NCBI GenBank assembly: GCA_963792585.1 | Contig: CAWBWI010000006.1 | Coordinates: forward strand, 992,001-1,056,000 | Source of the DNA: Candidatus Eiseniibacteriota bacterium | GTDB lineage: Bacteria; Eisenbacteria; RBG-16-71-46; CAIMUX01; VGJL01 | Length of the DNA: 64,000 nt | Direction: 5' to 3' | Shown here: piece after piece, positions 11,138-38,818 of the stretch | How the letters are laid out: each line of letters begins with the position of its first letter | Position numbering within the stretch: the first letter of the stretch is position 1 | The notes under the pieces: model-generated | Database searches by the model: none | What the model was told of the DNA's origin: nothing | The model's input: the letters and a program-made list of their open reading frames with translations, nothing else | Program-made: the position numbers and the translations under genes

Positions 11138-11152
11138 GTCATCCGTCCTTTC

Positions 11153-12202
11153 TCAGGAGATTGTCTGGTTCGGGGCGAGGTCGGTCGCGCCCTCGAGCGG
11201 CGCGGGACACCCGAAGTACCGTTCGTGGGCGACATCCACGATTCGCAGGATGAGGCTGTTGAAGTCGTAGCCGGCGGCCCTCGCCGCCGTCACATAGGCG
11301 CCACCCTGTCCCAGGGACGCCATGGAGTTGATTTCGAGAACGAAGGGTTTGCCTCGATGGTCGAGGCGGATATCGACGCGGGCGTAGTCCCTGCACTGAC
11401 AGGCGCGGAAGACGCCCAAACCGACCTCTCGAATCAACGACGTGGAGGCGCCGTCGAGCGGCGCCGGGCAAAGCTTCTGCGGCTCATCCGACGTCTTGTG
11501 GAACTTGTCCGAACCCGTCACCATCCTCAGCGATCGCCCGCCGAAGTCGATCTCCGTCAACGGGAGGATTCCGGCCGATCCGTTTCCCAAGAGCGCGACG
11601 GCGACCTCCCGCCCTTCGATGTACTCCTCGACCAGGGCATCCTGCCGGAACTCGGTGACGATTCTCTCGACCGCGGGGCTCAACTCATCTCGATCGTGCA
11701 CGAGGGCCAGCCCGCAGCTCGTCGACTCGAAACGCGGCTTCACCACGAGCGGGAACGTCAGCGCATCCGCCTTCCGCAGCTCATCCGATCCGCCCATGAG
11801 ACAGAATGAAGGGGTGGGGATCCCCTCTTGCTGGATCCGCAGCTTCGTGAGCGCCTTGTCCAGGCAGATGGCGTGCGCACGCGGCCCCGACCCTGTATAG
11901 GGCACGCCGGCCATCTCGAGCATCACCGGAACCTGCGAATAGCGGGCCTCACCCTGACTCCCGTAGGACATGTTGAAGACCATCCCCGTCGGCCGCCCGC
12001 TCAGCGGATCGGGAGGCATGAACTCCTTCAGTTCATGAAGCAGGGTCATGTCGCCTTCGAAGACCGCGGCGACATGGCCACCGCTGCGAAGCGCGTCGAG
12101 GACGGCTTGAACAGACTTCCGGCCGTATGTCTCGGGAGACTTCTGCCCGAAGTGGTTGATCACACCTTGATCGGAACGGTTCCGTACGACGGCGATTCTC
12201 AT
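11153..12202 (-). CDS. D-Ala-D-Ala-ligase-like ATP-grasp peptide ligase (non-canonical)
   Basis: GVPYTGS, DKALTK, FPLVVKP, LVEEYIEGREV, YARVDIR, LEIN motifs; lacks the N-terminal GGxSxE of true Ddl. Confidence 0.85.
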   Translation of the reverse strand: MRIAVVRNRSDQGVINHFGQKSPETYGRKSVQAVLDALRSGGHVAAVFEGDMTLLHELKEFMPPDPLSGRPTGMVFNMSYGSQGEARYSQVPVMLEMAGVPYTGSGPRAHAICLDKALTKLRIQQEGIPTPSFCLMGGSDELRKADALTFPLVVKPRFESTSCGLALVHDRDELSPAVERIVTEFRQDALVEEYIEGREVAVALLGNGSAGILPLTEIDFGGRSLRMVTGSDKFHKTSDEPQKLCPAPLDGASTSLIREVGLGVFRACQCRDYARVDIRLDHRGKPFVLEINSMASLGQGGAYVTAARAAGYDFNSLILRIVDVAHERYFGCPAPLEGATDLAPNQTIS

Positions 12203-13212
12203 GAGAGCGGCTCCCTTTCGAGTGCAGGTCGTGGATACGATGAGGTCGACGGGTTCGGGCGAGCATCGCGAGCGAGCTCGGCGCGCGGCGGCGCAGTGGA
12301 GACGGCTCCGGCCTGCGCTGGGGCGAGGCCGAGCGCCAGGGCTGGGATCGGGCCGTCGACCACCGCGGGCTTCGCGATCCGCTTCTTGCCCTTCTTGCCC
12401 TTCCTCCTCTTCTTCACCGGAGGATTGAGGGACGAGAAGAGGCGGTAGCCGAGATACTCGGTGATCAGGATGATCAGGCCGATCTCGAGGATCAGCAGCT
12501 CCGGAAAGCGAACGAGGGTGGTTACGAAACCGGGGATTTCCGCGATCTTCGTGATGAGCACGGCGACGGCGGCCGTGACCGCGCCCCGCCAGAGCGCCGA
12601 ACGCTTCCCTTCCCGGTGGAGCGTGGAGGCAAACGCATCACCGGTAAGGCAAAGAGCAACAATGGGGAAGTAGGCCACGCGCCGGAGACCATCCAGGTCG
12701 AAGGAGCGGCTGATCGACAATGTGGCGGCGATCACCACGGCGACCGTGCTCATCACGACGGAGACCCTTCCGTAGTAGGGAAGCCGGATCCTCTTGAGCG
12801 GCCGGCGCACCGCGACGATGACCCCGAGAACGACCGCCAGAAAGAAGAGGCCGAGCGGGATTCCGGTCGCCTGAAACGCCACGGCGAGCAAGAAGGAGCG
12901 GAAGGGTCCGAGCACGCGGATTCCCAGCGTGACGCGGAAGAAGACGACGATGACGGCTGCCAGCGGCACCAAGAGGACCGATCCGACCCGCTTCCCCGTT
13001 TCTCCGCCGACGCCGGCCAGCGAGGATGCGTGCTCGAGAAGCTCCCCGATCGTCGTTCCCGACAGCTTGAGGCCGATCATCAGGAGGGGCAGCGAGACGA
13101 GCAGGACGACGAATGCCTTCCGGGCCCCGCGAATGCGCCCCCGACCCGTCAGCAGGCGCCGCCGCCCGCGCGCGTTTGGAGCGTCCGCACGGAGGCTCGG
13201 CTCAGACGCCAT
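12199..13212 (-). CDS. 7TM membrane protein of the inactive-transglutaminase-associated family (7TM_transglut-like)
   Basis: LVPLAAVIVVFFRVTLGIRVLGPF, FPIVAL, FPELL...EYLGYRL motifs; multiple TM segments; ATG 13212 overlaps the ggt 3' end; stop overlaps the ligase ATG. Confidence 0.75.
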   Translation of the reverse strand: MASEPSLRADAPNARGRRRLLTGRGRIRGARKAFVVLLVSLPLLMIGLKLSGTTIGELLEHASSLAGVGGETGKRVGSVLLVPLAAVIVVFFRVTLGIRVLGPFRSFLLAVAFQATGIPLGLFFLAVVLGVIVAVRRPLKRIRLPYYGRVSVVMSTVAVVIAATLSISRSFDLDGLRRVAYFPIVALCLTGDAFASTLHREGKRSALWRGAVTAAVAVLITKIAEIPGFVTTLVRFPELLILEIGLIILITEYLGYRLFSSLNPPVKKRRKGKKGKKRIAKPAVVDGPIPALALGLAPAQAGAVSTAPPRAELARDARPNPSTSSYPRPALEREPLS

Positions 13213-14893
13213 CAGCGGTGCCCTCCCGCCGGGGATCCGCCGCCCCGATCCAGTCCCCGTTCGCATCGCGCGCGATCGCCTGCACTCCGCCCATGGCATA
13301 GCTTCTGGACGCCTTGATCTGGACCGGCTGGAAGGAACGTGAGATCTCTTCGAGGACATCGGTCGCGGCCGCGCGCCGCTCCAGCATGACCCGCCCCGAA
13401 GTGGTTGCATGAATTCGCGGGGCGTCCACCGCCTCGGGAAGATCCATCCCCCGGTGAAGGATGTTCGCCATGACCTGGAGGATCGAGGAAGTGATGCGCC
13501 GGCTTCCGGCCGCGCCGATCGCAAGGATGGGGTCCTGCCCTCCATCCGGTCGCCGGCGCAGGACCAGTGTGGGCGCCGCATTGGATTGCGGGGTGGCCCC
13601 GCTCGCGAGACGGCTCGGGTGGCGGTACCGAGGACAGGTGCAGAGGTAATTGTTGTAGAAGAAACCGAGGCGGGAGTTCGCGACCTTCGCCCCGAACAGG
13701 GACTGCACCGATTGCGTGAGGCTGACGACCATCCCGGAGGCATCGGCGACACACAGATGCGTCGTGTCACCAGGTCCCTCCGCCGTCGGACGATCGGAGC
13801 CTGAATTCCCTGCGAGAATTCCACGAGCGATCTCCTCGGCCCGTTCGTCACTCACGAGCCACGCAAGGAGGGATCGAGGTGTGCCGTCCGCCCGAACGGG
13901 CCACCGATCCCGCTCCTGAAAGATCGCGCGCGTGACCTGAGCGATCGCCGCATACCATGTGGGGAGCGCGCACCCTTCGGGCAGTCCGAGTTTCTCGAGA
14001 ACCCGCAACCCCAAGAGCAGCTGCACGCCGCCGCCGGGCGGGGGAACGCTCACGATCCGGTACCCTTGGTGATCGATCGACAGCCCCTCCCTCGTGACGG
14101 GGAGGCGGCAGCCGGACAGATCTTCCCTGGTGATCAGCCCATCCTGCTCGCGCATGTCGGCGACGATGTCGTCCGCGATCGCTCCACGGTAAAAATCATC
14201 GACCCCGAATTCGGAGATTCGTTCCAGCGCGCGCCCCAACTCCGGCTGGCGCAGAATCGAGCCGGTCTTGAGCGGCTTTCCATCGGGCATGAAGCGACGA
14301 CGTGCGAGCGGGGACGCCTCGAGCGCCGTTCCGCACCACTGGATTTGCTTCCGAAGCAACCGCGTCACCGCGAAGCCCTCGTTGGCAAGAGCGGTGGCCG
14401 GTCCCAGTACCGCCGATAGCGGGAGTCTTCCGAATCGCTCCGATGCCGCGCCCAGGGTTGCGGGAGTGGACGGAATCGTGCACGCGCGCGCTCCGCGCCT
14501 CTGCTCGCTCCGGCTGATGCTCTTTCGGCCGGCCCCGGCCGGGCCGTGAGAATGACCGTCCAAGATCACGTTCTTCCCGTCCGGAAGGTGGATGAGCATG
14601 GTCGTCTGCCCGCCGAGACCGGAGCCGCTCGGTTCGCATACCGAGAGGGCCCAGGCGGCTGCGACCGCTGCGTCCACCGCGTTCCCGCCGGACCGAAGGA
14701 TCTCCATCGCCGCCTCGCTGGCGGCGGGGAACGCGGTGGCAACGACGCAACTGGGACCACGCGCGACGCGATCGGTCGGCCGTGCCTTGATCCCACTCCC
14801 GATTTCGGTCACGGCTACCCCCGGATGCGCAGGGTCGTTCATCGGACCCGGCGCCAGTTCCGTCGATGGACCGCCCGGCGGATGTCCCCGCAT
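13202..14893 (-). CDS. Gamma-glutamyltransferase family protein (start 14893 or 14842)
   Basis: ILRSGGNAVDAAVA, VCEPSGSGLGG, FYRGAIA, catalytic TTHL, GAADPRREG; ATG 14893 overlaps the kamA stop (TGATG). Confidence 0.92.
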   Translation of the reverse strand: MRGHPPGGPSTELAPGPMNDPAHPGVAVTEIGSGIKARPTDRVARGPSCVVATAFPAASEAAMEILRSGGNAVDAAVAAAWALSVCEPSGSGLGGQTTMLIHLPDGKNVILDGHSHGPAGAGRKSISRSEQRRGARACTIPSTPATLGAASERFGRLPLSAVLGPATALANEGFAVTRLLRKQIQWCGTALEASPLARRRFMPDGKPLKTGSILRQPELGRALERISEFGVDDFYRGAIADDIVADMREQDGLITREDLSGCRLPVTREGLSIDHQGYRIVSVPPPGGGVQLLLGLRVLEKLGLPEGCALPTWYAAIAQVTRAIFQERDRWPVRADGTPRSLLAWLVSDERAEEIARGILAGNSGSDRPTAEGPGDTTHLCVADASGMVVSLTQSVQSLFGAKVANSRLGFFYNNYLCTCPRYRHPSRLASGATPQSNAAPTLVLRRRPDGGQDPILAIGAAGSRRITSSILQVMANILHRGMDLPEAVDAPRIHATTSGRVMLERRAAATDVLEEISRSFQPVQIKASRSYAMGGVQAIARDANGDWIGAADPRREGTADGV

Positions 14894-16188
14894 CACAGGG
14901 AGCGCCCGTACGCGGCGGTGGCTTCCTCGGACCGCGAATTCGTTTCCATCTCCGCGGATTCGGATCGCCCCGAAAATGCCGCCGGCTTCAGTTGATCGAG
15001 CCAGATCGCCCGGTCGTCGCGGTGGAAGATCATCACACGGCCGACATTCTCCTCGTCCTTGGCCCGGTGATAGCGGGTGTATATGAAGTCGGCGTCGACG
15101 CCGATCACCTCGACCTTGCCGGTCGCGTGAGACATGCAGAATCGCGCGCGGCGCGACAGACCCGAAGACAGTTCCTGAGCCTGACTGAAGATCCTCCAGC
15201 TCTCCACGATCGGGATGTCGAAGGGCTCGTTTCCCGCAGTGGGTCTGCACTGAAAGACGTAGTATTGGGGCGCGCCCAGATTCGTCATCGTGTTGAAGAG
15301 CGCCGCCAGGGTTTCCGGTTTGTCGTTGATCCCCCGGATCATGGGGCACTGGTTCACGACGCGCGCGCCACTGCGCATCGCGCAGGTGACCGCCTCGCGC
15401 GCCTCGGCGGTGAGTTCCCGGGGATGATCGAAGTGCGCCATGATGTAGAGCGCTCTCTCGGGTGTGGCGATCTCCCGTATGAGGCGCTGCAATTCAGGGT
15501 CGTCGAGCAGGCGGAATGGATTGAACGCGAGCATCTTGCTGCCCGTGCGGATCGTGCGGACGTGCGGGATGGCCGCCAGGCGCTCGAGGATGGGCCGCAG
15601 TTTGCCGGTGCTCATGATCAAGGGGTCCCCGCCGGTCAGGAGCACGTCCGTGATTTCCGAGTGCGAAGCGATGTAGGCGAACGCGGGCTCGAGTTCGTGT
15701 ACGGCTTCGTCGTGGTCGTTCATGAAGAGCCGCTTCCGAAAGCAGTAACGGCAGTAAGCGCCGCAGACGTTGTTGACCAGCACCAGCGCCGTGTCCCGGT
15801 ACTTGTGCTGGACGCCCTGCGCCACCGTCACGGCAGCCTCGTTGCTGGCGTCGAGCTTTCCCCACTCGGTCATCTCCCCGCTCGTGGGGATGACGAGCCT
15901 TCGGATCGGGTCTTCGGGATCGTTCCAGTCGATCAGGTTGAGGTAGTAGTCATTCGCCCGGAAGACGTACCGCTTCGACACTTCCTCGAGCGCTTTCTTG
16001 GCTTCCTCGGACAGGCCCTCGACCTGTTGCAGGGAGCGGATGTACTTGACCTTCCTCGACTGCGAACCGGTGGAGGGAACCTCCACGCTGGCCGGCGTGC
16101 GCGACGGGCTCTGTCCAACGTATCCCGAATCTATCCCGGTGGTCTGGATGTCATAGCTGCTGGCCTGGGGTTCGTAATCGTTGTTCAC
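14893..16188 (-). CDS. KamA-family radical SAM protein (lysine 2,3-aminomutase-like)
   Basis: GVQHKY, CGAYCRYCFRKR, LLTGGDPL, HFDHPREL, NQCPMIRGIND; AGGAG RBS before GTG 16188. Confidence 0.92.
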   Translation of the reverse strand: MNNDYEPQASSYDIQTTGIDSGYVGQSPSRTPASVEVPSTGSQSRKVKYIRSLQQVEGLSEEAKKALEEVSKRYVFRANDYYLNLIDWNDPEDPIRRLVIPTSGEMTEWGKLDASNEAAVTVAQGVQHKYRDTALVLVNNVCGAYCRYCFRKRLFMNDHDEAVHELEPAFAYIASHSEITDVLLTGGDPLIMSTGKLRPILERLAAIPHVRTIRTGSKMLAFNPFRLLDDPELQRLIREIATPERALYIMAHFDHPRELTAEAREAVTCAMRSGARVVNQCPMIRGINDKPETLAALFNTMTNLGAPQYYVFQCRPTAGNEPFDIPIVESWRIFSQAQELSSGLSRRARFCMSHATGKVEVIGVDADFIYTRYHRAKDEENVGRVMIFHRDDRAIWLDQLKPAAFSGRSESAEMETNSRSEEATAAYGRSL

Positions 16189-16493: not shown

Positions 16494-17993
16494 CTATCGT
16501 GGAAGGATGCTCACGCGGGAACCCAGCGCTTCTCCTTCCGTCCCGATGCGAACGAAGTAGGTTCCCGGGGAAACGAGACGGGCCGCCTGATCTCTGCCGT
16601 CCCACACGGGCCGGTTCGACCGGCCGAGAACGCGCACGAGCCTTCCCGCGGAATCGAAGATCCGCACATCGAGCTCTCCGAGACTCTCGGGGGCAACGAT
16701 GCGTACATCGCCGGCGCTTGGATTCGGAACGGCGCGGAGATGCTCTCGAGCAAGGACCCCATCGCCCACCGCCGCAATCCCTTCGAGAGCCGCGGGGAGA
16801 TAGATCCGTCCGCTGCCGAGCTTGCCCTGGTATGGATCATTGCCCGGAATCTGGTCGATCGGATCGACGGCGGACTCGATCCGCAGTCGGACGACCTCGG
16901 GAATCTCCAGTGGAAGGAGACTTCGTATCAGGGCGGCCTCGCCGGCAACAAAGGGCGTGGCGAAGGAGCATCCGGCCCCCATGGCCCATAGCCCGCCCGG
17001 ATAGGAACTCCGAACGCCGGTACCGGGGGCGGCTACCAGGACCTTGGAATGCCAGTCGGCAAAGGCGGCTTTCGTGTCCAGCGAGTCGACGGCGGTCACC
17101 ATTTCCGCCTCTTCCGTCCCGGCGGGATAGTAGAGTTGCTCCAGATTGTCGTTGCCGGCCCCGGCGACGACGATGATGCCGTGTTCCCGGGCCAGCTCGA
17201 GCTGATGGCGAATGATCGCGACCCCGCGGGGAACTCCGAAGCTCATATTGAGCACATGGGCCCCTTGATTCACCGCGTAGCTGATTCCCTTTGCGATCTG
17301 GTATGCGTCGCCGTTGCCCTCGTCGCTGAGGACGCGAATGGGAAGGAGCGTGGCCTCCGGGGCGACCAGAGCCACGATGCCGGCGACCATGGTCCCGTGA
17401 CCGTAACCCTCGTCCGCGACGCCGTCCTGATCTTCATCCAGTCCGTTGGCGATCTCCCAGGGACTGCTGTCATCGTCGACGAAGTCGTATCCGAACGGGG
17501 AGAGCTTCGCTTGGATCGCTTCATGGCCGGGATCCACGCCCGTGTCCAGAACGGCAACGGTGACGCCGGCGCCTCGGCTCATCAGGTGCGCGGCATCGAG
17601 ACCGATTCGAGGGCCGATGCTCTGATCTTCGTAGTCGACGTAGCCTCCGCCGACGATGACGATCACCATCTGACGGATGGTCTCCGGCGTGTCGTGGAAG
17701 TAGTTGGCCTCGGCCTCCAGGATTGCCGGATCGGTTTCCATCTGCGATGCCAACCCTTCGACGTCACCCAAATCGGTCGCATCGAGAAGGTACAGGTTCC
17801 CTTCCGGGTAGGCGTCCAGTGTGGTGGTCCCCCAAACGGAGTTGACCTCCTCGATGACATGCCCAGGCTGCAGGTTCACAACCACCTGAGCGGCCTCGTA
17901 GTCATCGGCGATCGCCAGGGCGGGCAGGAGCAGCCCGATCGCGCAGAGGACCCGGCCCATCAGCGGTTGCAGAAGCTTCACGTTGCTCCTCAT
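16494..17993 (-). CDS. Secreted S8 subtilase with FlgD/T9SS-like C-terminal domain (copy 1)
   Basis: Catalytic triad motifs VAVLDTG, GHGTMVAG, GCSFATPFVAG; oxyanion AGAGN; signal peptide; CTD PNP...WDGRD..GTYFVR. Confidence 0.92.
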   Translation of the reverse strand: MRSNVKLLQPLMGRVLCAIGLLLPALAIADDYEAAQVVVNLQPGHVIEEVNSVWGTTTLDAYPEGNLYLLDATDLGDVEGLASQMETDPAILEAEANYFHDTPETIRQMVIVIVGGGYVDYEDQSIGPRIGLDAAHLMSRGAGVTVAVLDTGVDPGHEAIQAKLSPFGYDFVDDDSSPWEIANGLDEDQDGVADEGYGHGTMVAGIVALVAPEATLLPIRVLSDEGNGDAYQIAKGISYAVNQGAHVLNMSFGVPRGVAIIRHQLELAREHGIIVVAGAGNDNLEQLYYPAGTEEAEMVTAVDSLDTKAAFADWHSKVLVAAPGTGVRSSYPGGLWAMGAGCSFATPFVAGEAALIRSLLPLEIPEVVRLRIESAVDPIDQIPGNDPYQGKLGSGRIYLPAALEGIAAVGDGVLAREHLRAVPNPSAGDVRIVAPESLGELDVRIFDSAGRLVRVLGRSNRPVWDGRDQAARLVSPGTYFVRIGTEGEALGSRVSILPR

Positions 17994-18078
17994 CTCTCTC
18001 GGCCCCTGCCCGGGCGCAGGAACGGCGGGTAACACCCTCGTCGGCCCGGCCCTCGACCATCGGGGGCGACCTGAACGA

Positions 18079-18114
18079 CTCCTTGCAGTCGTCCATATTT
18101 CGGCGATTGATACA
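18079..18114 (-). promoter_or_regulatory. Candidate ECF-sigma promoter for subtilase 1: TGTATC-N19-ACTGCAAGGAG
   Basis: Lies between the divergent subtilase and ECF sigma genes; matches the motif at 16259-16293. Confidence 0.65.
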
Positions 18115-18205
18115 AAAGGATACCATTCCCCCGTTCCCAGCTTCCATCCCCCGTACCCCAGGGGTGCGCCCGGGGTTTGCGGGCCCGGCGGTCTATCGTG
18201 GTAGG

Positions 18206-18778
18206 ATGCTGACCATGCGTGAGTTGCACGGTTGGGTGGCGGATCTCCAGGCTGGTGACGACGGGGCCTGGAGGGAGTTCATTCGGGTCTTCTCTCGATT
18301 CGTCCCCCTCGTTGCCGGCCGGCTCGGCCTCACGGCGGAAGAAAAGGAGGAAGTCCTCCAGGAGATGACCCTGACCGCCTACCGATCGATCCGGAATCTC
18401 CGCGATCCGGAACGGCTGAGTTCCTGGACGTACACCATCGCCCGCCGGGCGGCCATCACCATGTGGCGCTCCAAGAAACGGCATCCGGGCTCCGAGCATG
18501 ACGAGGAGGCGGAATTCGACAGGCTTCCCTCCGGGGAGCCCGCGGTCGATACGATCTTGATCGATCACGAGGAAGGTCAGAAGCTGCGCGAGGCGGTCGC
18601 CACGCTTCGCCCTCTATGCCGTGGGCTCATCGATGACCTCTTCCTGAAGGAACCGCGGCGAAGCTACCAGGAGGTCTCGCAGGAACGGAGCATGCCGATC
18701 GGGAGCATCGGTCCGACCCTGGCCCGTTGCCTTCAGACCCTTCGCCAGGCATGGAAATCGGTATCAAATACAGGATGA
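18206..18778 (+). CDS. ECF sigma-70 factor (copy 1)
   Basis: Region 2 (AWREFI...EEVLQE...LRDPERLSSWTYTIARR) and region 4.2 SYQEVS...PIGSIGPTLARCL. Confidence 0.92.
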   Translation: MLTMRELHGWVADLQAGDDGAWREFIRVFSRFVPLVAGRLGLTAEEKEEVLQEMTLTAYRSIRNLRDPERLSSWTYTIARRAAITMWRSKKRHPGSEHDEEAEFDRLPSGEPAVDTILIDHEEGQKLREAVATLRPLCRGLIDDLFLKEPRRSYQEVSQERSMPIGSIGPTLARCLQTLRQAWKSVSNTG

Positions 18779-18795
18779 GGGTCCTCTGCAATGAG
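18760..18795 (+). promoter_or_regulatory. Candidate ECF promoter for anti-sigma/CHAT 1, overlapping the sigma 3' end: GGTATC-N19-TCTGCAATGAG
   Basis: 5/6 and 9/11 matches to the two boxes of the motif at 16259 and 18079, with the same spacing. Confidence 0.55.
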
Positions 18796-18843
18796 TGACC
18801 AGTCGTTTGGGAACCATGTCGAGCCGTTACTAGAGGAGCAACC

Positions 18844-19440
18844 GTGTCGGAGATAACCCGTCCGCAAGATGATCCGCTCCTGCAGGCACCCGAGCTGCGT
18901 GAGATGATCTGGGCGTTGGAACTTACCTCGGCTCCCGAGTTGAGCCCGCAGAAGGTCGCCACCCTCTGGCGGGAAGTCCGATCGAGGGCATCCGCCGGCG
19001 CGGCGCCGGGCGTTGCAGGAATCCTGAATCAGATGCGCGATGGCTTGGCGCACGCCTTGCGCGAGATTGCCGCGACCCTCGTCCAGGAGTCGCTCGTCCC
19101 GTCACCGGCCGTCCGCAGCACCGAGACGGCCCTGCCGAGGCTCCTGGTTTACGAGACCGATGAGTATGCGATCTCTCTCACGTTTCAGGCGCCCCCCGAG
19201 GCGACGCTTCTGAAGCTCATCGGTCAAGTGGTTCCAAAGCTCGCGCCCGACCTCCCCCCGGGAGGCGAGATCGCCGTGTGGAGCGAGTCCGAGACGAAGT
19301 TCGGCCGGCTTGACACGAACGGCGAATTCTCCGTGGAAGGCGTCCAGAGCGGCGATCTCCACATCGACATCCTGCTCGGGACCGACTCGATTCAGCTTTC
19401 TCCGATCCACACCGGGGCCTTCCGGGCCAGGGAGGACTAG
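18844..19440 (+). CDS. Putative soluble anti-sigma factor with C-terminal carboxypeptidase-regulatory-like beta-sandwich (copy 1)
   Basis: GAGGAG RBS before GTG; lies between sigma and CHAT; shares LVxxS/T..[VI]R[SG]..RxLx[YF]E, IGQ and GEF motifs with 37409-38065; no TM helix. Confidence 0.65.
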   Translation: MSEITRPQDDPLLQAPELREMIWALELTSAPELSPQKVATLWREVRSRASAGAAPGVAGILNQMRDGLAHALREIAATLVQESLVPSPAVRSTETALPRLLVYETDEYAISLTFQAPPEATLLKLIGQVVPKLAPDLPPGGEIAVWSESETKFGRLDTNGEFSVEGVQSGDLHIDILLGTDSIQLSPIHTGAFRARED

Positions 19441-19443
19441 AAA

Positions 19444-22254
19444 ATCCCGGACGATCCTGACGAATCGGGCGCCCCGTCTTCCGACGCTCCCCAACTTCTG
19501 CGATCGCTCGAGGATCCGCACTGGGTCCCGAGCTTCCGTGAGGCAACGATCCTGCGAGATCATGTCGCCTCTCTCCTCCAGGCCGACCCGCGACTCGCCG
19601 GTCGGATCGCCATGGATCTCCTGCGCTCCGTTCAGGGCAAGACCTCGGCATCCATCGGCGCGCAAGCCGTCGGATGGAGGGCGCGGGCCGAGTCCCTGCT
19701 GTATGCCGGCGAGTACAAAGCCGCCCGATCCGCTTACGAGAAGGCATGCTCTTGCGCCGGCGCCGCCTCGGAGCATCGTCTTCTCGGCCAAATCCTCGTA
19801 GGCAGGATCGGCACCCTCCTCGTGATGGGCGATTTCCGCTCGATCCACGCGATGACCCGCCAAGCGGAGGCCTTGCTGCGAAGGAACGACGATCAGGAGT
19901 ATCTCCGGCGTCTCCACATCAATCTGGGGAGCGGTCTCTACCATCGCGAGAAGTACGCCGAAGCCTACGCCTCCTTCGCCGAGGCCCTTCGACTGATGGA
20001 GGAGGCGGGCCAGCACGACGATCTGTGGGCGTCCCTGACGCTCAACTTCGGGATCGCGTGCAGCCAGCTCGCGCGCGTGCAGGAGGCGCGCGAGGCGTTC
20101 GCGAAGGCGGAGGCGTACGGCCGCGCCCACGCGCAGGACCGCATGGTGGCCCAGGCGGTGTTCAATCTGGGGGCCCTCGAGGGGCTCCGCGGCGGTTACC
20201 GCGCGGCCCTTCGGTCGCTCACCGAAGCCGAGGAAGCGTTCGTCCGTCAGGGAGTGCAGGAGCTCCTCGCGGCCACCCACCTCGAGCAGGCCCAGATCTA
20301 TCTCGATCTATCCATGGCCACCGAGGGCAAGGAGCTTGCCCAGAGGGCGGCCTCCGCATTCACCTCGGAAGGGATGCTCCTCGACGCGCAGCTGGCGCGG
20401 ATCGCGGAGGCGCGAAGCCTCGTGATGTTGGGACGGCCCAAGGAGGCGGAGGGGCTTCTGCGCGATGCCGAGCGCTTCTACCGGGCGCAGCACATCGCGG
20501 CAAGAAGAGCGCAGGCCCTGCTGGACATCGCGCTGGCGATGTCGGCCCGCGACGAGACGGCAGCCGCGATGCAAACGGCCCGCAGCGCGCTCAGCGTGGC
20601 CGAGCGATTGCACCTGGGAAGCCTGACCTGCGCTTGCCGTTGTCTCATCGCAGAGCTGCTCCTCCGAACTGGTGCCGGGCCCAAGGCTGAACGCGCCCTG
20701 GCGGGCATCGTCCCGGGGCTTTCGAAATTGCCGATGCGCGATCGCCTCGAATACTGGAGCACGGCCGCGCGGGTCGCGGCGTTCCGAGGAATGACCGCGC
20801 TGGCCGGACGCCGCTACCGCAGGGCAACGCAGTGTTTGGAAGCTCAGAGGGCACTGATTCCGGGTCTCGAACTCCGCACGAAGTCGTTCGAACAGAACGT
20901 CCGCGTCTACCACGAGAAGATCGCGCTCCTGGCGGGGTCTCGACGCCCCCAACTCGATCGCATCCTGCTCCTGATGGAGCGGGCGCGGGGTAGAACGTTC
21001 CGGGAGCTCGTGGCCGCGCGGGGCCGGCAGTCGCAGGGGGAGATTGCGGAGCTCCGAGCCGTGCTCGGCTCCCTGGTGCGGCGCCTCGACCACCTCGTGA
21101 TGGGAGAGCGTCCGGCGGCGCCCCAGGAGGTAGAGCCCCTCCGACGGCAGGTCGTGCAGCTCGAACACCAGATCACCTCGCGCGTGCGCCGGATCGAGAC
21201 GACGGAGGGGTCCGTCACCGGAAGCGGTTCGTTCCGAAGGTCATCCCAGATCGTCCCCCTTCTCGCCGCCGACGAGGTGATGATCGAGTACTTCGTAGCG
21301 AAGGATCGAATTCTGGCGGCGGTGGTGGGAAAGCAGGAGCGTTTCCTGCGGACGCTCGAGGCACCACTGCCCAGGCTACGGGATCTCCTCGACCATTTCG
21401 GCCTCCAACTGGAATCGCTCGCCGCCACCGCGAGCCGACCCTTGGGGGGCCAGGCGTTCCTGCGACGGAGCGCGGAAGCGAAACTGGAGGAGTTCTACTC
21501 GTTGCTCCTCCGACCCATCCTCGGGGATCTTCCCCCCTGCGGACGGCTCACGATCATTCCGCACGACATCCTGCACCAGATCCCGTTCGAGTGTCTTCAC
21601 GACGGAACTCAGTACCTCGATCGTTCTTGGCAGATCACGCGGTGCCCGACGGCAGATTTCCTGATCGAGCGCAGAAGTCGGTCACGGGGGGCCCCCGTAG
21701 GGAATACGGTGGTCATCGCCGGAACTCGCCCCGGATCCCCATTCATCGAGGTGGAAGCACGGCGGGTGCTGGATTCCTGGGAGCCGTCCGGCAGCCGGTT
21801 GTTGGTCGATCCATCCTCTGCCGATGCTCTGGCCGCCATGAAGGGGGCCCGGGTCATTCACGTGAGCGCCCACGGCAACTTCCGCGGCGACAACCCCCTA
21901 TTCTCGACGCTGCACCTCGGTCGTGAGGTGCTCTTTCTGGCCGATATCCTGGAGACGCCCCTCACCGCCGACCTGGCCGTTCTGAGTTCCTGCGACAGCG
22001 GACAAACATTCAGTGGCCGAGGGGACGCCCTACTGGGCGTCGCACATGCATTCCTCGCCGCCGGCACGGACCGCCTGGTGGCCTCCCTCTGGCGCGTCCA
22101 CGATCAAGCCACGGCTTCCTGGATGGAGGCCTTTCACCGCGCCTTGCGGGAGAGCGGGGACGCCCCGGCGGCCCGCCTTCACGCTTGCCAGGTGGTTCGG
22201 GAAGAGTGGCCGCATCCCTTCTACTGGGGCGGATTCAGCGTTCTCGGAGGCTAG
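19444..22254 (+). CDS. TPR-CHAT (caspase HetF-associated) protease (copy 1); first ATG is 19612, but the frame is open and homologous from about 19444
   Basis: Long TPR-like helical region; CHAT motifs IIPHDILHQIPFE, IHVSAHG (His), LSSCDSG (Cys), VASLWRV, HPFYWGGF. Confidence 0.9.
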   Translation: MPDDPDESGAPSSDAPQLLRSLEDPHWVPSFREATILRDHVASLLQADPRLAGRIAMDLLRSVQGKTSASIGAQAVGWRARAESLLYAGEYKAARSAYEKACSCAGAASEHRLLGQILVGRIGTLLVMGDFRSIHAMTRQAEALLRRNDDQEYLRRLHINLGSGLYHREKYAEAYASFAEALRLMEEAGQHDDLWASLTLNFGIACSQLARVQEAREAFAKAEAYGRAHAQDRMVAQAVFNLGALEGLRGGYRAALRSLTEAEEAFVRQGVQELLAATHLEQAQIYLDLSMATEGKELAQRAASAFTSEGMLLDAQLARIAEARSLVMLGRPKEAEGLLRDAERFYRAQHIAARRAQALLDIALAMSARDETAAAMQTARSALSVAERLHLGSLTCACRCLIAELLLRTGAGPKAERALAGIVPGLSKLPMRDRLEYWSTAARVAAFRGMTALAGRRYRRATQCLEAQRALIPGLELRTKSFEQNVRVYHEKIALLAGSRRPQLDRILLLMERARGRTFRELVAARGRQSQGEIAELRAVLGSLVRRLDHLVMGERPAAPQEVEPLRRQVVQLEHQITSRVRRIETTEGSVTGSGSFRRSSQIVPLLAADEVMIEYFVAKDRILAAVVGKQERFLRTLEAPLPRLRDLLDHFGLQLESLAATASRPLGGQAFLRRSAEAKLEEFYSLLLRPILGDLPPCGRLTIIPHDILHQIPFECLHDGTQYLDRSWQITRCPTADFLIERRSRSRGAPVGNTVVIAGTRPGSPFIEVEARRVLDSWEPSGSRLLVDPSSADALAAMKGARVIHVSAHGNFRGDNPLFSTLHLGREVLFLADILETPLTADLAVLSSCDSGQTFSGRGDALLGVAHAFLAAGTDRLVASLWRVHDQATASWMEAFHRALRESGDAPAARLHACQVVREEWPHPFYWGGFSVLGG

Positions 22255-27628: not shown

Positions 27629-27711
27629 GGCCAAACTGACGGGGTTGCCCCCCTCAGGTGCGCGCTGGTAGGCTGCCCTGGCCGTCACTCCGGGATCATG
27701 GAGGTTCGTCC

Positions 27712-29977: not shown

Positions 29978-30142
29978 CGGCCCTCCCGGCGCCAGCATAC
30001 CGATCGCCCCATGGCCCTGCACGATCGGCTTCTCTTCTGGTAACCATCTTGTGAATTTTGATATTCTTATAACGCTGTCGCATGAATGGCGGAGATGTCG
30101 GATCTCCCGCCCGGGCTCAACCACGCCGGAGGCAATTCCTAT

Positions 30143-32792: not shown

Positions 32793-34322
32793 CTAGCGGT
32801 CCAGGACGATTCGTCCCTGGAGCGATCCTCCGTCGACGTGCACGAAGTAGACGCCGGGCGGGACCGCTCGACCCGAAGCGTCCCGTCCATTCCAGCGCGC
32901 CAGACCGGTGGGTCCGGGTTCGATCGTCCGGACGCGGCGACCCGCTGCGTCGACGACGACCATCCGGGAAAGCCCGCCGGTGTTGCCGAGCCTGAAGGAA
33001 ACCCCCTGTCCGACCCGGGCGGGATTCGGGAAGAGTTCGAGGCGCCCTACCGTCAAGCCCGTGCCGTCGACGTCCGCAGTCTTGGGGCTCGCGACCCACG
33101 TCGCCATCCCGTCGAAGCGCCCGCTACCGAGTTGGCCCTCGTAGGGCCCATTCTCCGGGATTTGGTAGATCCCGACGACCCCGAGCCCGACGGTGCCGTA
33201 GACAGTCTGTACGCTTGCGTCGGGCTTCAGCGACAGGACGAGGGCGCACTGCCCGCTGACGAATGGCGCCGAGAAGGACGTCCCGGCTCCGATCGCATAC
33301 TCCCCGTCGTAGAAGGGTGCCAGCACTCCATCCCCGGGCGCGGCGACGTCGACGGTCGATCCATAGCTCGTAAAGCTCGTCCGGACGTCGACGGAGTCGA
33401 GTGCCGCGACGGAGACGACCTGAGGGTCGCTTGCGGGGTAGTAGACGGGATAGTCGGAACCGCCGTTGCCGGCCGCACCCACCATCGCGACCGACAAGTC
33501 GTAGGCCGCGCGGACCTCATGCCTGATGACCATGCACTCCTGGGTCAGCCCCAGGCTCAGGTTGATTACCTGCGCGCCATGCTCGACCGCATAGCGGATC
33601 CCCTTGGCGACATGGAAGGTCGTTCCACGACCTTCGTCGTCGAGGACCCGGATGGGCAGGATCCTCGCATTCGGGGCGACGAGGTGCACGATCCCGGCCA
33701 CCATCGTTCCGTGGCCCGCCCCATCATCGGTCAAACCGTCGAGGTCATCATCGGCCCCGTTGGCCTCATCGAGTGGATCCGCGTCGTTATCCACGAAATC
33801 CCAGCCATTCGGATCGATCGCGCCGTTGAAGGCCGGGTGATCGGGAAGCACCCCTGTGTCGATGACGGCGACCAGGACGCCGTCCCCCATCGTGTGGGAC
33901 TGGATCTCGGCGAGACGGATCCGCGTGGTCAGGTGCTGGTCGAGATAATCCGTAATGGTCCCGCCTACGGCGGCGACCATCATCTGCCGCGTGCCCTCGG
34001 GGGTTTCGTTGTCCCACGAGTACTCGGCCTCGACCACGTTCGGATTCTGGCGGATCTGGTAGACATATTCGGCTTCGCTGCCGTCGGGGCACCGCAGCAG
34101 GTAGAGCGGCGGCAGAGAATCAAGCGTCGAGGTGCCATAGAGATCATTGATGACCGAAATCGGCGTCCCCGGAATGAGCTCCACCTGGAGTTGTCCGATT
34201 TCCCAGTCGTCCGCGAAGCTGCGCTTCGCCTCTGCGCCCATGAGCAATGCCACGAGTAAGGCGATGAGCGCGGGCACGAGGGTCAGGCGTCTGCGGCGAA
34301 TGGAGATTGTCGAGCGATCCAT
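32793..34322 (-). CDS. Secreted S8 subtilase with FlgD/T9SS-like CTD (copy 2)
   Basis: VAVIDTG, GHGTMVAG, AAGN, GTSFSAPFVSG; GGAGG RBS; signal peptide; clearly paralogous to 16494-17993. Confidence 0.93.
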   Translation of the reverse strand: MDRSTISIRRRRLTLVPALIALLVALLMGAEAKRSFADDWEIGQLQVELIPGTPISVINDLYGTSTLDSLPPLYLLRCPDGSEAEYVYQIRQNPNVVEAEYSWDNETPEGTRQMMVAAVGGTITDYLDQHLTTRIRLAEIQSHTMGDGVLVAVIDTGVLPDHPAFNGAIDPNGWDFVDNDADPLDEANGADDDLDGLTDDGAGHGTMVAGIVHLVAPNARILPIRVLDDEGRGTTFHVAKGIRYAVEHGAQVINLSLGLTQECMVIRHEVRAAYDLSVAMVGAAGNGGSDYPVYYPASDPQVVSVAALDSVDVRTSFTSYGSTVDVAAPGDGVLAPFYDGEYAIGAGTSFSAPFVSGQCALVLSLKPDASVQTVYGTVGLGVVGIYQIPENGPYEGQLGSGRFDGMATWVASPKTADVDGTGLTVGRLELFPNPARVGQGVSFRLGNTGGLSRMVVVDAAGRRVRTIEPGPTGLARWNGRDASGRAVPPGVYFVHVDGGSLQGRIVLDR

Positions 34323-34532
34323 GAACACCTCCAATAGATGCTCTGATTCATGATATGCGCAAACATCATAGCAGAGAGAGCGCGATTCGTTCAAAGCCGT
34401 TCCCAGTACACCGATTCCCTCCGGGACCTGGAGCTGACCGAAGGGTCAGCAGCGGCCGTCGCGACAAATATCCAAGAAACTGATCTAATAATGATCATGC
34501 CATTAGGCCAACTCACGATTCGACCCGAGAGG

Positions 34533-37412
34533 CTATCTCCCGATGCCTCCGAGCGACGCGAATGAGGCCCAATGCCATGGATGGGGACGCCGGATCATGA
34601 GGGAACGCATCGCGCGGCCCAGCGCGATCGCCGGGGCGTCCCCCGTCGCGAACGAATCGTAGAAGAACTCCATCAACTCGAGGGTCGGGTCGTCCTGGAT
34701 CGGCCAGAGACTCGCAACGACCGAGGAGGCACCCGCCTGCAGAAAGCCTCGAGCAAGCCCGATCCACTCGTCCCCTACGGGAGCGGCGCCCCGGCCCGAA
34801 GAGCAAGCCGTCAGCACCACCGTGGACGAGGGAAGGCGAAAGTCCGCCAGGTCGTGAACGAAGAGCGGCCCATCCGCCAACTGGACGAAGGAGTAGGCAG
34901 GGTTGTCGCGACGCAGCATTCCGTGGGCCGCGATGTGGATGAGGTGCGCCCGTCGACCTTCCCGGCGCATGCTTTCGATCGTGGGCGCGAGGTCGGAGTG
35001 AATCTCCCAACCGGGCAGGTTTGCCTGAACGCGCTCCACCTCGACCGCCACCGAAGGCAGTAGATCCGAAGGGACCCCCGCGACGAAGGCGGCCCTCCCT
35101 GCGCGCGCCGGAGCGGGAGGAAGTGCGCGCCAGATACGCGCGCTGGGGACGATGGCGATGTCCGTCCGCTCGGCGATGTAGCCGTCGCGGCCCCGCAGAG
35201 CATGAAGCGGCACGCGATGGATCGCTCCGTGCGGAGAGACGATCCAGCGCAATGACGCATCCACGCCCATCTGCTCGAGAGGCTCCCAGAGGAGTCCGTG
35301 GAGCTCCGCGAGAATCGCGTCGGCGGAGGATTGAAGACGCCGCTCCGCGGCGCTCGGCGCACACGATTCGGTGGCGGCCAATTGCGCGCCGCGCACGCTC
35401 GTCATGGCCGCAGCGGTCCACTGGAAATCGAGTCGGTCGGTCAGACGGGCGAGCCGTGCGCCGAGATCGTTCGCCAGGCGGCGCCAGACGGAGCCATCGC
35501 GGGTCACGGCGAGCGCCACTGAGAAATCAGGCCCGATGTGGTAGGCGAGGAAGCCCCAACCCCGTGGGAGATCACGTTGGAGTTCCGGTAGCGAGGGGGG
35601 CTCTCCGCTTCCGATCCGGTCGCGACCGGATCGACGCTCTCGATCCTCGCGCAGGGCCTTGCTCCACTCCCCCTCCGTGGCGATCAAGCGCGGGCGGAGC
35701 TCGATTGCGCGCGCGCGATCCTCGGGCGAGCCGAGTTCCAGGCGGGAGATCCGCGCGTGCAGCCAGGCAAGCCGACGCCGCGCAGCGGTGAGGCGACGAT
35801 CCCGCGGCCTCTCCCCCTCGAAGAGGTAGGCATCGGGGTCGCGCAGGCGATCCCAGAGGCTCTGGGCGCGGGCGCGTTCCGTCCACTCGAACAGCCGATC
35901 GATCGAAGGCCGCGGGCGATCGATCTCGATCGCGAGGAGACGGTCGTGGAGGTGGTTCTTGTCGCCGAGGAAGGCGATCTTCGAGTCTTCGGTCGGGATT
36001 CGAGAGCGCAGATCCTCGAGTCGGGTCAGGGCGTTTCGGTAGGAGCGGCTCGCCTCGCCGGACTTGCCGGCTTGCTCCTGCGCCCTACCGAGCGCCTCGA
36101 GCAACCGATAGGCGGGGATCGGATAGACCTGCTGGGGCAGGCGACGGAGCAGCCGGCGAAGCCGGGGAATTCGCTCCTCTCCCGTCTCCCGCCGCTCGAG
36201 CAGCTCATCCAGAAGAACGGTTGCCGTCGACTCCCATCGGATCAGACCGAGCCGCTCGAAGGCATCGATGGCGGCGCGCACGCGTCGCTCCGCCTCGGCG
36301 CGCCCCCCGCGCCGGCGCAGCGCCTCCCCTTTCAGCATGTCCATCAAGGCGACACGGGGCGCGTTCTTCTCCTTCCGGAAGAGTCTCTGGCCCCGCCGGA
36401 TCCGATCGAGCGCCGTCGGGAGATCCCCGAGCGCCATGCTCGAGAGGGCCTCCTGGCTGAGAGCCAACGCCTCGTCGTATGCGAGCCCCTCTTCAGCGAA
36501 CAAGGGGATCGCCTGTCTCGAGAGATCGAGCGCCTCCTGATGGAGGTTCAACTGGTGGTAGATCTCGGCTCGGTTGAGAAGACACTCCGCTTCGAACGCA
36601 GGATGCTCTGTTTGGTGGAAATAGGTGGTCAAGAGGCTTATCTCTCGGAGTGCCTTGCCAAAATCCGCCCTTTGAGCGTGCACATAGGCGGCATTCATCC
36701 GAACTTGGGCCTGGAGAACCTCGAAACCGCGCTTGCCGGTTTCCTTCTCCAGCCGCTCGAAAAGGGCCAGCGCCTCTTCGTCTCGGTCGAGCTGGCTCAG
36801 GGCGACCCCTCGATTGACTTCCAATCCGAGGACCGTTTCGTCCCGGATGCGAAGCCTGCGAAAGATCTCCGAGGCCCGTTCGATCTCCTCGAGCGCCGGG
36901 CCGTAGCGGTCGTGCTGGAAGTGGCTCGAGCCGAGGTTCATGGCGAGCTTGGCCAGATAGGTCTGATCCCCCGCCTCCTCGAGATTGCGGCGGGCTTCGA
37001 TCACGGCTTTCTCGGCGTCGCGATGGCGGCCGAGGAGCGAGAGGACATGGACGGCGCCGACGAGGAGTTGACCGAGAAGGCCCGGAGCACTCGCCCGCCG
37101 CCAGGCCTCGGCAGCCTGGGTGTAGGAGGCATTGGCATCACGCATCCGACCGGAGAAGAGGAGCGACTCGGCCACCGCGCGGTGGCCCCAACCGAGGGAG
37201 AGGGGATCGCCGAGAAGCTCGGCGAGTTCGAGGGCGCGCGAGGCGATCCGCCGGGCGGCGGAAGCATCGGTGTGGTAGAAAGGGACCGCCTCCATCCGGA
37301 GGGCCTGAACCCAGCCGGCTCCGGTCCCAGGTAGTCCTTCCCGAACGCGCCTCCCTAGCTCCTGGGAGGAGGCATCAACCAGATCCTTCGTGCTCGGAGG
37401 ACTACCGGTCAC
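34533..37412 (-). CDS. TPR-CHAT protease (copy 2)
   Basis: TPR-like repeats; PHGAIHRVPLHAL, IHIAAHG (His), LTACSSG (Cys), VVASLWPI, HPWHWASF. Confidence 0.92.
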   Translation of the reverse strand: MTGSPPSTKDLVDASSQELGRRVREGLPGTGAGWVQALRMEAVPFYHTDASAARRIASRALELAELLGDPLSLGWGHRAVAESLLFSGRMRDANASYTQAAEAWRRASAPGLLGQLLVGAVHVLSLLGRHRDAEKAVIEARRNLEEAGDQTYLAKLAMNLGSSHFQHDRYGPALEEIERASEIFRRLRIRDETVLGLEVNRGVALSQLDRDEEALALFERLEKETGKRGFEVLQAQVRMNAAYVHAQRADFGKALREISLLTTYFHQTEHPAFEAECLLNRAEIYHQLNLHQEALDLSRQAIPLFAEEGLAYDEALALSQEALSSMALGDLPTALDRIRRGQRLFRKEKNAPRVALMDMLKGEALRRRGGRAEAERRVRAAIDAFERLGLIRWESTATVLLDELLERRETGEERIPRLRRLLRRLPQQVYPIPAYRLLEALGRAQEQAGKSGEASRSYRNALTRLEDLRSRIPTEDSKIAFLGDKNHLHDRLLAIEIDRPRPSIDRLFEWTERARAQSLWDRLRDPDAYLFEGERPRDRRLTAARRRLAWLHARISRLELGSPEDRARAIELRPRLIATEGEWSKALREDRERRSGRDRIGSGEPPSLPELQRDLPRGWGFLAYHIGPDFSVALAVTRDGSVWRRLANDLGARLARLTDRLDFQWTAAAMTSVRGAQLAATESCAPSAAERRLQSSADAILAELHGLLWEPLEQMGVDASLRWIVSPHGAIHRVPLHALRGRDGYIAERTDIAIVPSARIWRALPPAPARAGRAAFVAGVPSDLLPSVAVEVERVQANLPGWEIHSDLAPTIESMRREGRRAHLIHIAAHGMLRRDNPAYSFVQLADGPLFVHDLADFRLPSSTVVLTACSSGRGAAPVGDEWIGLARGFLQAGASSVVASLWPIQDDPTLELMEFFYDSFATGDAPAIALGRAMRSLMIRRPHPWHWASFASLGGIGR

Positions 37413-38065
37413 TCATCCAGGCCTGCTTCCAGGTCGATCGGATCGCTGACCAACTCCCGGCCGGCCCACGCAATCCGTATCCGGACCGGGCCACCGGGGA
37501 TCCCATCGATGCGGAACTCCCCCGTCTCGGAGAGGCGCCCCCGGGGCGATCCCTGCTCGACCTCGACACGAACCACCCCACCCCGGAGGCGATCCGCCGG
37601 GTTCGAGGGCACCAGTTGACCGATCACCGTATAGGATCCGGAACCGGCCTCCACCTGGAGGTGGAGACTCCCGAGTGGTGATTCGAACATGAGCTGCCGA
37701 TGCTCGGAGACTGCGGAGCCCCGGATTCCCTGCATGGACGCGCCGATCGCCGTGTCGAGGACGAGTCCCAGGCGGACCTCCTCGAGGACCCGCCGGACCT
37801 TCTCCTTCACCGCACCGATCGCGGTGCGGGACGTCTGCCCCTGCCGGAGCGCCGCGATCTTCTCGAGCGCGGAATGAACGAACGCCTCCGGGGCCACAGA
37901 CAACGGCGGGACGCGCAGGGCGGCCAGGATCTCTCTGGTCGAGGCGACCCTCTCGGAACATCGCTCGCAGCCCGTCTCGAGATGGCGGCGGACCTGCTCC
38001 ACGGCCGGCGCATCGTCCGACTCGCAATACTCCAACAGGTTCTCGTCGCTCGGATGCCGGTTCAT
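37409..38065 (-). CDS. Putative soluble zinc-binding anti-sigma factor (zf-HC2-like) with C-terminal beta-sandwich (copy 2)
   Basis: N-terminal HPS...HLETGCERC; lies between ECF sigma and CHAT; stop overlaps the CHAT start; no TM helix. Confidence 0.78.
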   Translation of the reverse strand: MNRHPSDENLLEYCESDDAPAVEQVRRHLETGCERCSERVASTREILAALRVPPLSVAPEAFVHSALEKIAALRQGQTSRTAIGAVKEKVRRVLEEVRLGLVLDTAIGASMQGIRGSAVSEHRQLMFESPLGSLHLQVEAGSGSYTVIGQLVPSNPADRLRGGVVRVEVEQGSPRGRLSETGEFRIDGIPGGPVRIRIAWAGRELVSDPIDLEAGLDE

Positions 38066-38124: not shown

Positions 38125-38159
38125 ATTCGAGAAGTCGACCTAGGAGCTGGGCTGATACA
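38125..38159 (-). promoter_or_regulatory. Candidate ECF promoter for anti-sigma/CHAT 2: TGTATC-N18-ACTTC
   Basis: TGTATC immediately after the sigma 2 stop, the same position as in module 1; ACT conserved at 18-nt spacing. Confidence 0.5.
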
Positions 38160-38164
38160 CGCCT

Positions 38165-38818
38165 CTAACCGGTCCACCCCCGTTCCTCGTAGATGCGGCG
38201 CATCTTCTCCAAGCAGCGGGCCCGGGTGGGACCGATGCTCCCGACCGGAAGCCCCTCCCGACGGGAGATCTCCCCATAGTCGGGGGAAGGATCTTCGTAG
38301 AAGAGAATCTGAAGCAGGCGACGGCAACGCCCCGGCAGTCTCTCGAGCGCCTCCGCGATCTGCTGGGCCCGCTCGAGTTCCACCCGGCTGTGATCCGGCA
38401 GATCCCCCGAGTCGGGAGGATCGACCATGACGCGGCCCGAGCCCTCGTCCCCCTCTTCCAAGGCGGTCTCCCGCGCACGGGTCCGCGAGCGGATTCGGTT
38501 GATCGCCTGGCGGTAGGTGATCCCAACGATCCAGGAGGCAAGGCTCTCGCGGTTTCGTAGCCTGCCCAGGTCCGCGTAGATCACGAGCATCGACGATTGA
38601 AAGGCATCTTCCTGGTCTTCATCGGGCAGACCGACCTTCAGAATCGTCGAGTAAATTAGGTTCGCATAGCGCCGGAGGAACTCCTCCCATGACTCGGGTC
38701 GTTGGGCGATGCAAGCGTCGATCAACTCGATCGCGGTGAGGGCGCGCAAGGCGGCGGAAGTTCCACCGGGCAGGAAGGATCGCTTCCGCCCTGGTCGCGA
38801 CGAGGCCTCGTTCGGCAT
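38165..38818 (-). CDS. ECF sigma-70 factor (copy 2)
   Basis: SWEEFLRRY...EDAFQ...LASWI and DYGEISRREGLPVGSIGPTRARCL; same subfamily signature as copy 1. Confidence 0.93.
   Translation of the reverse strand: MPNEASSRPGRKRSFLPGGTSAALRALTAIELIDACIAQRPESWEEFLRRYANLIYSTILKVGLPDEDQEDAFQSSMLVIYADLGRLRNRESLASWIVGITYRQAINRIRSRTRARETALEEGDEGSGRVMVDPPDSGDLPDHSRVELERAQQIAEALERLPGRCRRLLQILFYEDPSPDYGEISRREGLPVGSIGPTRARCLEKMRRIYEERGWTG

Follow-up and report, generated by a model that had tools for sequence, protein, structure and literature searches.

A conserved ECF54-type module of sigma factor, predicted soluble anti-sigma factor, TPR-CHAT protease and subtilase in an Eisenbacteria-like genome

Can a caspase-like protease control a sigma factor outside of a CRISPR system? 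This question is raised by a stretch of 64,000 nt from a Candidatus Eiseniibacteriota bacterium (contig CAWBWI010000006.1; the whole stretch is called the window below), in which genes for a sigma factor of the extracytoplasmic function (ECF) type, a small soluble +1 partner, a large TPR-CHAT protein and a secreted S8 subtilase lie together. All four genes that the initial annotation had placed at positions 16494 to 22254 were indeed found there. Its interpretation, a TPR-CHAT protease that gates the sigma factor by cleaving an anti-sigma factor, was supported in part: synteny, promoter, anti-sigma ancestry, catalytic dyad and a candidate cut site speak for it, but the implied novelty does not hold. 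The four-gene module is real and widely conserved. Whether TPR-CHAT cuts the predicted anti-sigma factor at an invariant arginine, R91, and thereby releases the sigma factor is, judged from the sequences, about an even chance, which still makes it the most likely reading.

Conservation of the module and its relation to ECF54

A GTDB scan by the sigma motif alone yielded at least 590 confirmed matches, the best 80 of which led to 79 loci from Eisenbacteria, Acidobacteriota, Chloroflexota, Actinomycetota, Planctomycetota, Pseudomonadota and Armatimonadota. Among these 79 loci (best 80 of at least 590 matches), the partner was present in 72, CHAT in 59, S8 in 55, and all four genes in 50. Where both flanks reached 6 kb or more (44 loci), the respective values were 41, 41, 36, and 36, and the sigma gene stood alone in 3; because many loci are kin, these counts are not independent. 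The four-gene synteny is conserved, and the prediction that similar neighbourhoods exist in other phyla was borne out (at least seven phyla). A full-length-type CHAT match was obtained in 32 of 41 related genomes, and the partner family occurs in 66 of the 151 genomes searched of the window's phylum as well as in at least six other phyla. A first metagenome scan for the module found nothing, a second one retrieved one locus, and a search of the ESM Atlas returned unnamed clusters only. The 532 neighbouring open reading frames (ORFs), the largest clusters of which are unannotated, yielded no recognisable fifth conserved gene. One locus (L055) has decayed: partner, CHAT and S8 are broken by frameshifts or stops, and sigma gene and promoter are intact.

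The module recurs within the window at 32793–38818, as had been proposed, with all four genes; however, S8 is divergent from the sigma operon only in copy 1 (S8 on the minus strand, the other genes on the plus strand), whereas in copy 2 it lies 3′ on the same strand. The proteins of the two copies are 28–42% identical and the DNA shares a single 36-nt match; the second module is an old, separate lineage that parted anciently from copy 1. In 21 of 27 further loci of the window's group, all four genes were nearest to the same window copy, and on this measure the two module lineages are inherited as units. The nearest named loci belong to Candidatus Eisenbacteria, and the host genome is estimated to be 84% complete. 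Contigs of an RNA run (X7) cover the module stretch, although their presence alone is no proof of transcription.

The ECF54 group and its gene context were reportedly described by Huang et al. in 2015. According to the supplement of Casas-Pastor et al. (2021; PMC7826278), ECF54 occurs in Actinobacteria (100%) together with a +1 protein with a carboxypeptidase-regulatory-like domain, a subtilase and TPR-CHAT; the promoter given there is GTATCAG (−35) and CTCC (−10), and the group description names no putative anti-sigma factor. A review proposes proteolytic control for ECF54, that is, proteases that degrade the sigma factor (PMC8999054). As far as these sources go, the neighbourhood is thus already published as ECF54 context, promoter and proposed protease control included, and the idea of a Cas-free release via TPR-CHAT and an anti-sigma factor is already known from DdvA (PMC11506125). 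No experimental study of any ECF54 locus was found in the literature, with subscription journals mostly outside our coverage.

Sigma copy 1 scores above the TIGR02937 cut-off. In a quick tree, the window sigmas fall within a clade of 41 rows (Shimodaira-Hasegawa (SH) support 99), which is joined (SH 86) to a group of 10 rows; this sister group (SH 95) holds nine Actinomycetota sigmas, in a tree without named ECF54 members. The actinobacterial sigmas neighbouring those of the window show the ECF54 gene context. The module shares with ECF54 the +1 protein, which is CarboxypepD_reg-like at the family level (14 of 87 members match PF13620 at E ≤ 0.01; the window's two partners themselves fall below the Pfam threshold), the nearby subtilase and TPR-CHAT, and the −35 element, which is exactly GTATCAG in copy 2 and GTATCAA, with CTCTG, in copy 1. 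It differs from ECF54 as described by the Eisenbacteria-like host, which lies outside an actinobacterial range that is descriptive and not part of the group definition, by a zinc anti-sigma domain in most partners, by the export of the subtilase, and by a promoter after the sigma gene, not before it. Because the host is not actinobacterial, we name the module ECF54-type and not ECF54; it is a non-actinobacterial variant of the catalogued ECF54 neighbourhood.

The partner, the protease and the subtilase

The partner had been described as a putative anti-sigma factor that lacks a transmembrane segment. Indeed, copy 1 has no hydrophobic segment (maximum 19-residue hydropathy 0.83). The N-terminal part of an 87-row family profile matches the solved anti-sigma factors RsiW (7.5e-8), ChrR (3.8e-6) and the N-terminus of DdvA (4e-4) as well as chain 3hug_B (5e-4), which we take to be RslA, and zf-HC2 is matched by nine of the 87 family members. 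Judged by profile, the +1 proteins form a family of soluble, zinc-type anti-sigma factors. An HxxxCxxC-type motif is present in 107 of 121 full-length representatives, drawn from the best 150 matches of the partner search, and in at least 69 of the 105 proteins from the loci, a minimum count given that some of their starts were guessed too short. Copy 2 carries the motif if one extra residue is allowed. In copy 1 and five close relatives (P0001–P0005), the motif itself (H-x3-C-x2-C) is deleted, with the following helix retained. It is also absent from the actinobacterial partners, which retain the invariant Arg.

This Arg, R91 in copy 1 (codon 19114–19116), is the joint most conserved residue of the partner. 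It is found in 121 of 121 representatives and in 86 of the 87 rows of the alignment, the remaining row having an R one column off. Next to it, 77 of the 87 rows have G, S or A as the following residue, and 59% of the surrounding linker is G, A, S, P or T. The AlphaFold2 model of copy 1 (mean predicted local distance difference test (pLDDT) score of 81) comprises helices from 11 to 71 (pLDDT 60–72), strands from 73 to 82, an unstructured loop from 83 to 98 with R91, and an Ig-like C-terminal beta-sandwich from 99 to 189. Fold searches with the model gave only generic Ig-like matches (best Z 7.8), and Foldseek found no match to it at E ≤ 0.001, with the N-terminal helices barely probed. R91, in a predicted exposed loop, is a candidate cut site. 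Cuts behind Arg are described for HetF, a CRISPR-free CHAT protease (between R117 and S118; PMC9457339), and for LcCaspase, a bacterial caspase (between R and G; PMC12642450). The partner's invariant Arg, with the usual Gly or Ser next to it, is by analogy like the HetF site.

The catalytic residues of TPR-CHAT copy 1 are intact as had been stated: the motifs HVSAHG and LSSC are present, with His810 (21871) and Cys850 (21991), and Pfam CHAT matches at 2.7e-43. The dyad follows the TPR array, in keeping with a CHAT protease of clan CD, and is kept in 93 of 93 homologous CHAT domains; no convincing membrane segment was found in the protease. D887 (W-x-V-x-D) is acidic in 84 of 84 cases and absent from the Csx29 alignments; as its equivalence to the separase Asp (PMC4626109) could not be shown, a role as Arg-binding residue is a lead only.

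The homology of TPR-CHAT copy 1 reaches about 55 codons upstream of the first ATG (19612), and there is no ATG, GTG or TTG across the homologous N-terminus. Translation probably starts at ATC 19444, the only plausible start in the sequence, which sits 8 nt 3′ of GGAGG (element at 19431–19446, plus strand). Locus L139 (about 4520–4540) has the same TAG-codon-ATC layout with the ATC behind GGAGG, ATC is the only start candidate in locus L032, and locus L022 has only CTG. Because of such starts, gene callers will truncate these TPR-CHATs; if weak, such a start would limit the amount of protease. We disfavour a read-through, by pyrrolysine, of the TAG that separates partner and CHAT, as no PylS scored above the cut-off and the only start of the L032 CHAT is an ATC in a frame that differs from that of the partner. 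Nor is the junction likely to contain a sequencing error, because a contig of run X1, albeit of low depth and possibly not independent, is identical over 19402–19583, and L139 has the same layout.

S8 copy 1 (Pfam Peptidase_S8, 4e-38; triad D150/H199/S343) is built of a predicted signal peptide, a pro-region, a catalytic domain with S343 in GCSFA, and a C-terminal Por/FlgD-like sorting tail. Its likely start is ATG 17993 or GTG 17981, and the open frame extends to GTG 18035. By a hydropathy proxy, an export signal is present in 68 of 76 non-actinobacterial S8 proteins versus 0 of 8 actinobacterial ones. At the pro/mature junction, loci L021–L059 and the window have the motif PE-x-x-R-QM, with the Arg in 31 of 34 loci of the lineage; the motif echoes A-V-R and R-Q-L-L of the partner. 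Throughout the copy-1-type lineage, G-C-S-F replaces G-T-S-F before the catalytic Ser (16965–16973, minus strand). As other peculiarities, 17 of 84 S8 proteins carry W-x-x-G repeats in tandem (for example the Acidobacteriota loci L083, L092 and L095), and 7 of 84, which are actinobacterial, contain CPATEP.

Predicted regulon, proposed mechanism and competing explanations

The TGTATC element that had been put forward as a promoter was borne out as part of a bipartite motif, NGTAT[CT][AT]N-N15/16-[CG][AT]CTG. Of 106 regions that separate sigma from partner, 89 contain this motif versus 2.8% of shuffles, with a matrix trained on those same regions, many of them from kindred loci. In held-out regions, it was found upstream of S8 in 34 of 86 cases, whereas controls taken from within CHAT genes had it in 5 of 196 stretches. 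Only 12 of 111 sigma genes have it upstream, and six of these are actinobacterial. The same matrix detected GTATCA(G/A/C) with CTCCG upstream of five Kribbella sigmas. In the window, the motif lies before the two partner genes and before S8 copy 1, where its score of 18.3 ranks in the top five of the genome scan, and not before S8 copy 2, which is probably co-transcribed with the partner and CHAT of that copy. No sigma-70 promoter was found in the region of 16–23 kb of the window. Por/FlgD-like C-terminal tails are borne by about 262 of the roughly 3450 genes called in the host genome, and, on these rough gene calls, the motif is enriched before tail-bearing genes (7 of 262 versus 12 of 3183, p = 3e-4; p = 7.5e-4 without the module's own genes). 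Candidates among them include beta-propeller, FG-GAP and multi-heme cytochrome proteins. Altogether, the output looks more like an envelope or secretion programme than like phage defence.

In the mechanism that we propose, the N-terminal helices of the partner would bind the sigma factor and hold it inactive, and its beta-sandwich would dock on the protease and present the R91 loop, much as Csx30 does to Csx29. Once triggered by a ligand, TPR-CHAT would cut the partner after R91; this cleavage, probably followed by general proteolysis, would detach and degrade the N-terminal half and free the sigma factor. The latter would then transcribe the subtilase gene, more partner and protease as feedback, and a few further genes whose exported products share the sorting tail; its own gene would not be among the targets.

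Several known systems are built similarly. In type III-E Craspase, Csx29 cuts Csx30 in a loop and relieves CASP-sigma (PMC10028731). The module has in common with it a TPR-CHAT protease, a two-domain (predicted) sigma inhibitor with a loop cut site, and an ECF sigma factor, whereas Cas7-11 and an array are missing nearby, the partner belongs to another family, and the predicted P1 residue is Arg, not Met or Leu. TPR-CHAT copy 1 is no Csx29 by model NF041237 (29 bits versus a cut-off of 300), and PF03787 (RAMP) had no match in the 84%-complete host genome. DdvA of Myxococcus xanthus is a membrane anti-sigma factor fused to its own TPR-CHAT, for which Cas-free sigma release has been proposed (PMC11506125). 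Zinc-type anti-sigma domain, TPR-CHAT, ECF sigma factor and the proposed CHAT-triggered release are shared with DdvA/DdvS; however, DdvA is a single transmembrane protein that has its TPR-CHAT in the periplasm and needs RseP, whereas the window module consists of separate soluble parts. HetF/PatU3 of Anabaena likewise features a CRISPR-independent CHAT protease that removes an inhibitor by one cut between R and S, but HetF is membrane-anchored and controls division and differentiation, with no sigma factor or subtilase in the scheme described (PMC9457339). Other systems are described in the SAVED-CHAT preprint, PMC8195603 and PMC4626109.

A number of points weigh against a release of the sigma factor by cleavage at R91. 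Partner copy 1 alone matches no Pfam or NCBIfam family and has lost the zinc motif, the pLDDT of its N-terminal helices is only 60–72, and the promoter matrix was derived from the very regions, often of kin, in which the motif was counted. The nearest solved TPR-CHATs (Csx29) cut after Met or Leu, not Arg, and the invariant Arg could instead be a docking or inhibitory residue. The location of protease and inhibitor behind one predicted sigma-dependent promoter fits negative feedback equally, their co-induction also fits a role of the protease as off-switch or output, and the published suggestion for ECF54 is that proteases degrade the sigma factor (PMC8999054).

The anti-sigma factor might respond to another cue, such as a zinc or redox change or general proteases, while the partner, via its Arg loop, also inhibits the protease in a securin-like way or serves as its adaptor. 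As outputs of the sigma factor, TPR-CHAT and subtilase would then act on other proteins. We regard this explanation as rather unlikely. The predicted sigma-dependent promoters before both CHAT and S8 agree with it, as do the evolutionary distances, which correlate best between CHAT and S8 (0.73, versus 0.62 between partner and CHAT, although longer domains correlate better for trivial reasons), and the PCaspase system has a protease inhibitor next to its sigma factor (SAVED-CHAT preprint); yet the Arg is kept in copy 1 and the actinobacterial partners, from which the zinc motif is absent, and a two-domain partner with an exposed loop mirrors the cleaved Csx30. It appears improbable that the protease is instead a sigma-induced off-switch that degrades the sigma factor or, by maturation, makes the partner inhibit more strongly. 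A co-induction of CHAT and inhibitor is predicted, PCaspase cleaves its sigma factor (SAVED-CHAT preprint), and degradation of the sigma factor is what has been proposed for ECF54 (PMC8999054), but that proposal presumed that there is no anti-sigma factor, and the +1 family is one by profile. Moreover, the sigma factor's invariant Arg, R171 in alignment A3, lies in the DNA-recognition helix of region 4, which would explain its invariance without a cut site. The characterised TPR-CHAT/sigma pairs, Csx29/CASP-sigma and DdvA/DdvS, serve defence in the accounts cited above, and a stand-alone anti-phage system could be envisaged in which TPR senses a phage protein and the sigma factor induces defence. 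We find this very doubtful: PADLOC matched only 5 of 124 neighbour proteins (representatives from 358 clusters of the 532 ORFs), which look like generic enzyme domains, the neighbours in the window are housekeeping or secreted proteins, and the predicted outputs of the sigma factor are exported proteins.

As to the signal for cleavage at R91, the boldest candidate, in view of the junction motif of S8 and the CHAT-S8 correlation of 0.73, is the S8 precursor or a peptide derived from it. The module would then be a CRISPR-free, peptide-gated caspase switch that monitors its own secreted subtilase: TPR would read a stalled S8 precursor or a peptide of the pro/mature junction, the protease would cut the anti-sigma factor at R91, and the sigma factor would induce a regulon of exported proteins, in a response of the export-stress or quorum-like type. 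This extension is a long shot. ECF54 belongs to those sigma groups for which no known regulator is listed, and the +1 gene as a soluble anti-sigma factor with a single invariant, exposed Arg makes the question testable. If cleavage at R91 does release the sigma factor, caspase-controlled sigma release would be a common stand-alone mode of signalling, the module would be plausibly related to the Craspase arm, and the two insulated lineages in one genome would represent orthogonal protease-substrate pairs.

Coordinates and further features of the window and the host genome

Table 1. Genes and predicted promoters of the two module copies (positions in the window).
Feature	Position	Strand	Basis or remark
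Secreted S8 subtilase, copy 1	16494..17993	-	Pfam Peptidase_S8, triad, signal-like N-terminus, Por/FlgD-like tail
Predicted promoter of S8 copy 1, TGTATCAA-N16-GACTGCA	18084..18114	-	Genome-wide motif scan
ECF sigma factor, copy 1, ECF54-type	18206..18778	+	TIGR02937, alignment, tree; likely start ATG 18215
Predicted promoter of partner and CHAT copy 1, GGTATCAA-N16-CTCTGCA	18760..18790	+	Inside the 3′ end of the sigma gene
Soluble +1 partner, copy 1, predicted anti-sigma factor, 198 aa	18844..19440	+	Family profile, model
Cytoplasmic TPR-CHAT, copy 1, 936 aa	19444..22254	+	Probable ATC start; Pfam CHAT
S8 subtilase, copy 2 (GTSFS), signal peptide, FlgD-like tail	32793..34322	-	3′ of CHAT
TPR-CHAT, copy 2 (His830, Cys870)	34533..37412	-	GTGA overlap with partner gene
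Partner, copy 2, zinc-type motif intact (H4, H28, C33, C36), invariant R115	37409..38065	-	
Predicted promoter of partner-CHAT-S8 copy 2, TGTATCAG-N15-GACTTCT	38130..38159	-	Motif scan
ECF sigma factor, copy 2	38165..38818	-	Alignment, tree

The absence of cas genes and arrays that had been stated holds for the window, which contains no CRISPR array, but not for the host genome (G000), which has an unlinked type I-E CRISPR-Cas system on another contig (locus L147, C3:640000–652000) with Cse1, a Cas7 family protein, cas1 and an array of about 40 repeats. At four more loci of the host genome (C1:1659862–1663443, C1:1308607–1312734, C3:421931–426030, and C3:1280765–1285182), a sigma-like gene lies beside an apparently exported TPR-CHAT; most of them also have an anti-sigma-like gene and a hydrophobic tail at the C-terminus, and two of the CHAT frames look broken. 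These loci may represent a second, extracytoplasmic CHAT-sigma type.

To the left of the module, the region 7307–16188 (minus strand) encodes a radical S-adenosylmethionine protein, with motifs that we take to be KamA-like, a gamma-glutamyltranspeptidase, a 7TM transglutaminase-associated protein, an ATP-grasp ligase, and a secreted protein of 1276 aa with about 13 repeats of 67 aa. Between the two copies, the plus strand encodes a protein of 543 aa (27658–29289) with a helix-turn-helix-like N-terminus and a Cys-rich C-terminus that had no Pfam match at 1e-4, and an M14 carboxypeptidase with CarboxypepD_reg, followed by a tail-bearing ORF (30086–32757); the latter two are apparently one gene with a frameshift near 31700. 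A 45-nt tandem repeat of about 3.5 copies, 94–96% identical, is located at 50617–50773.

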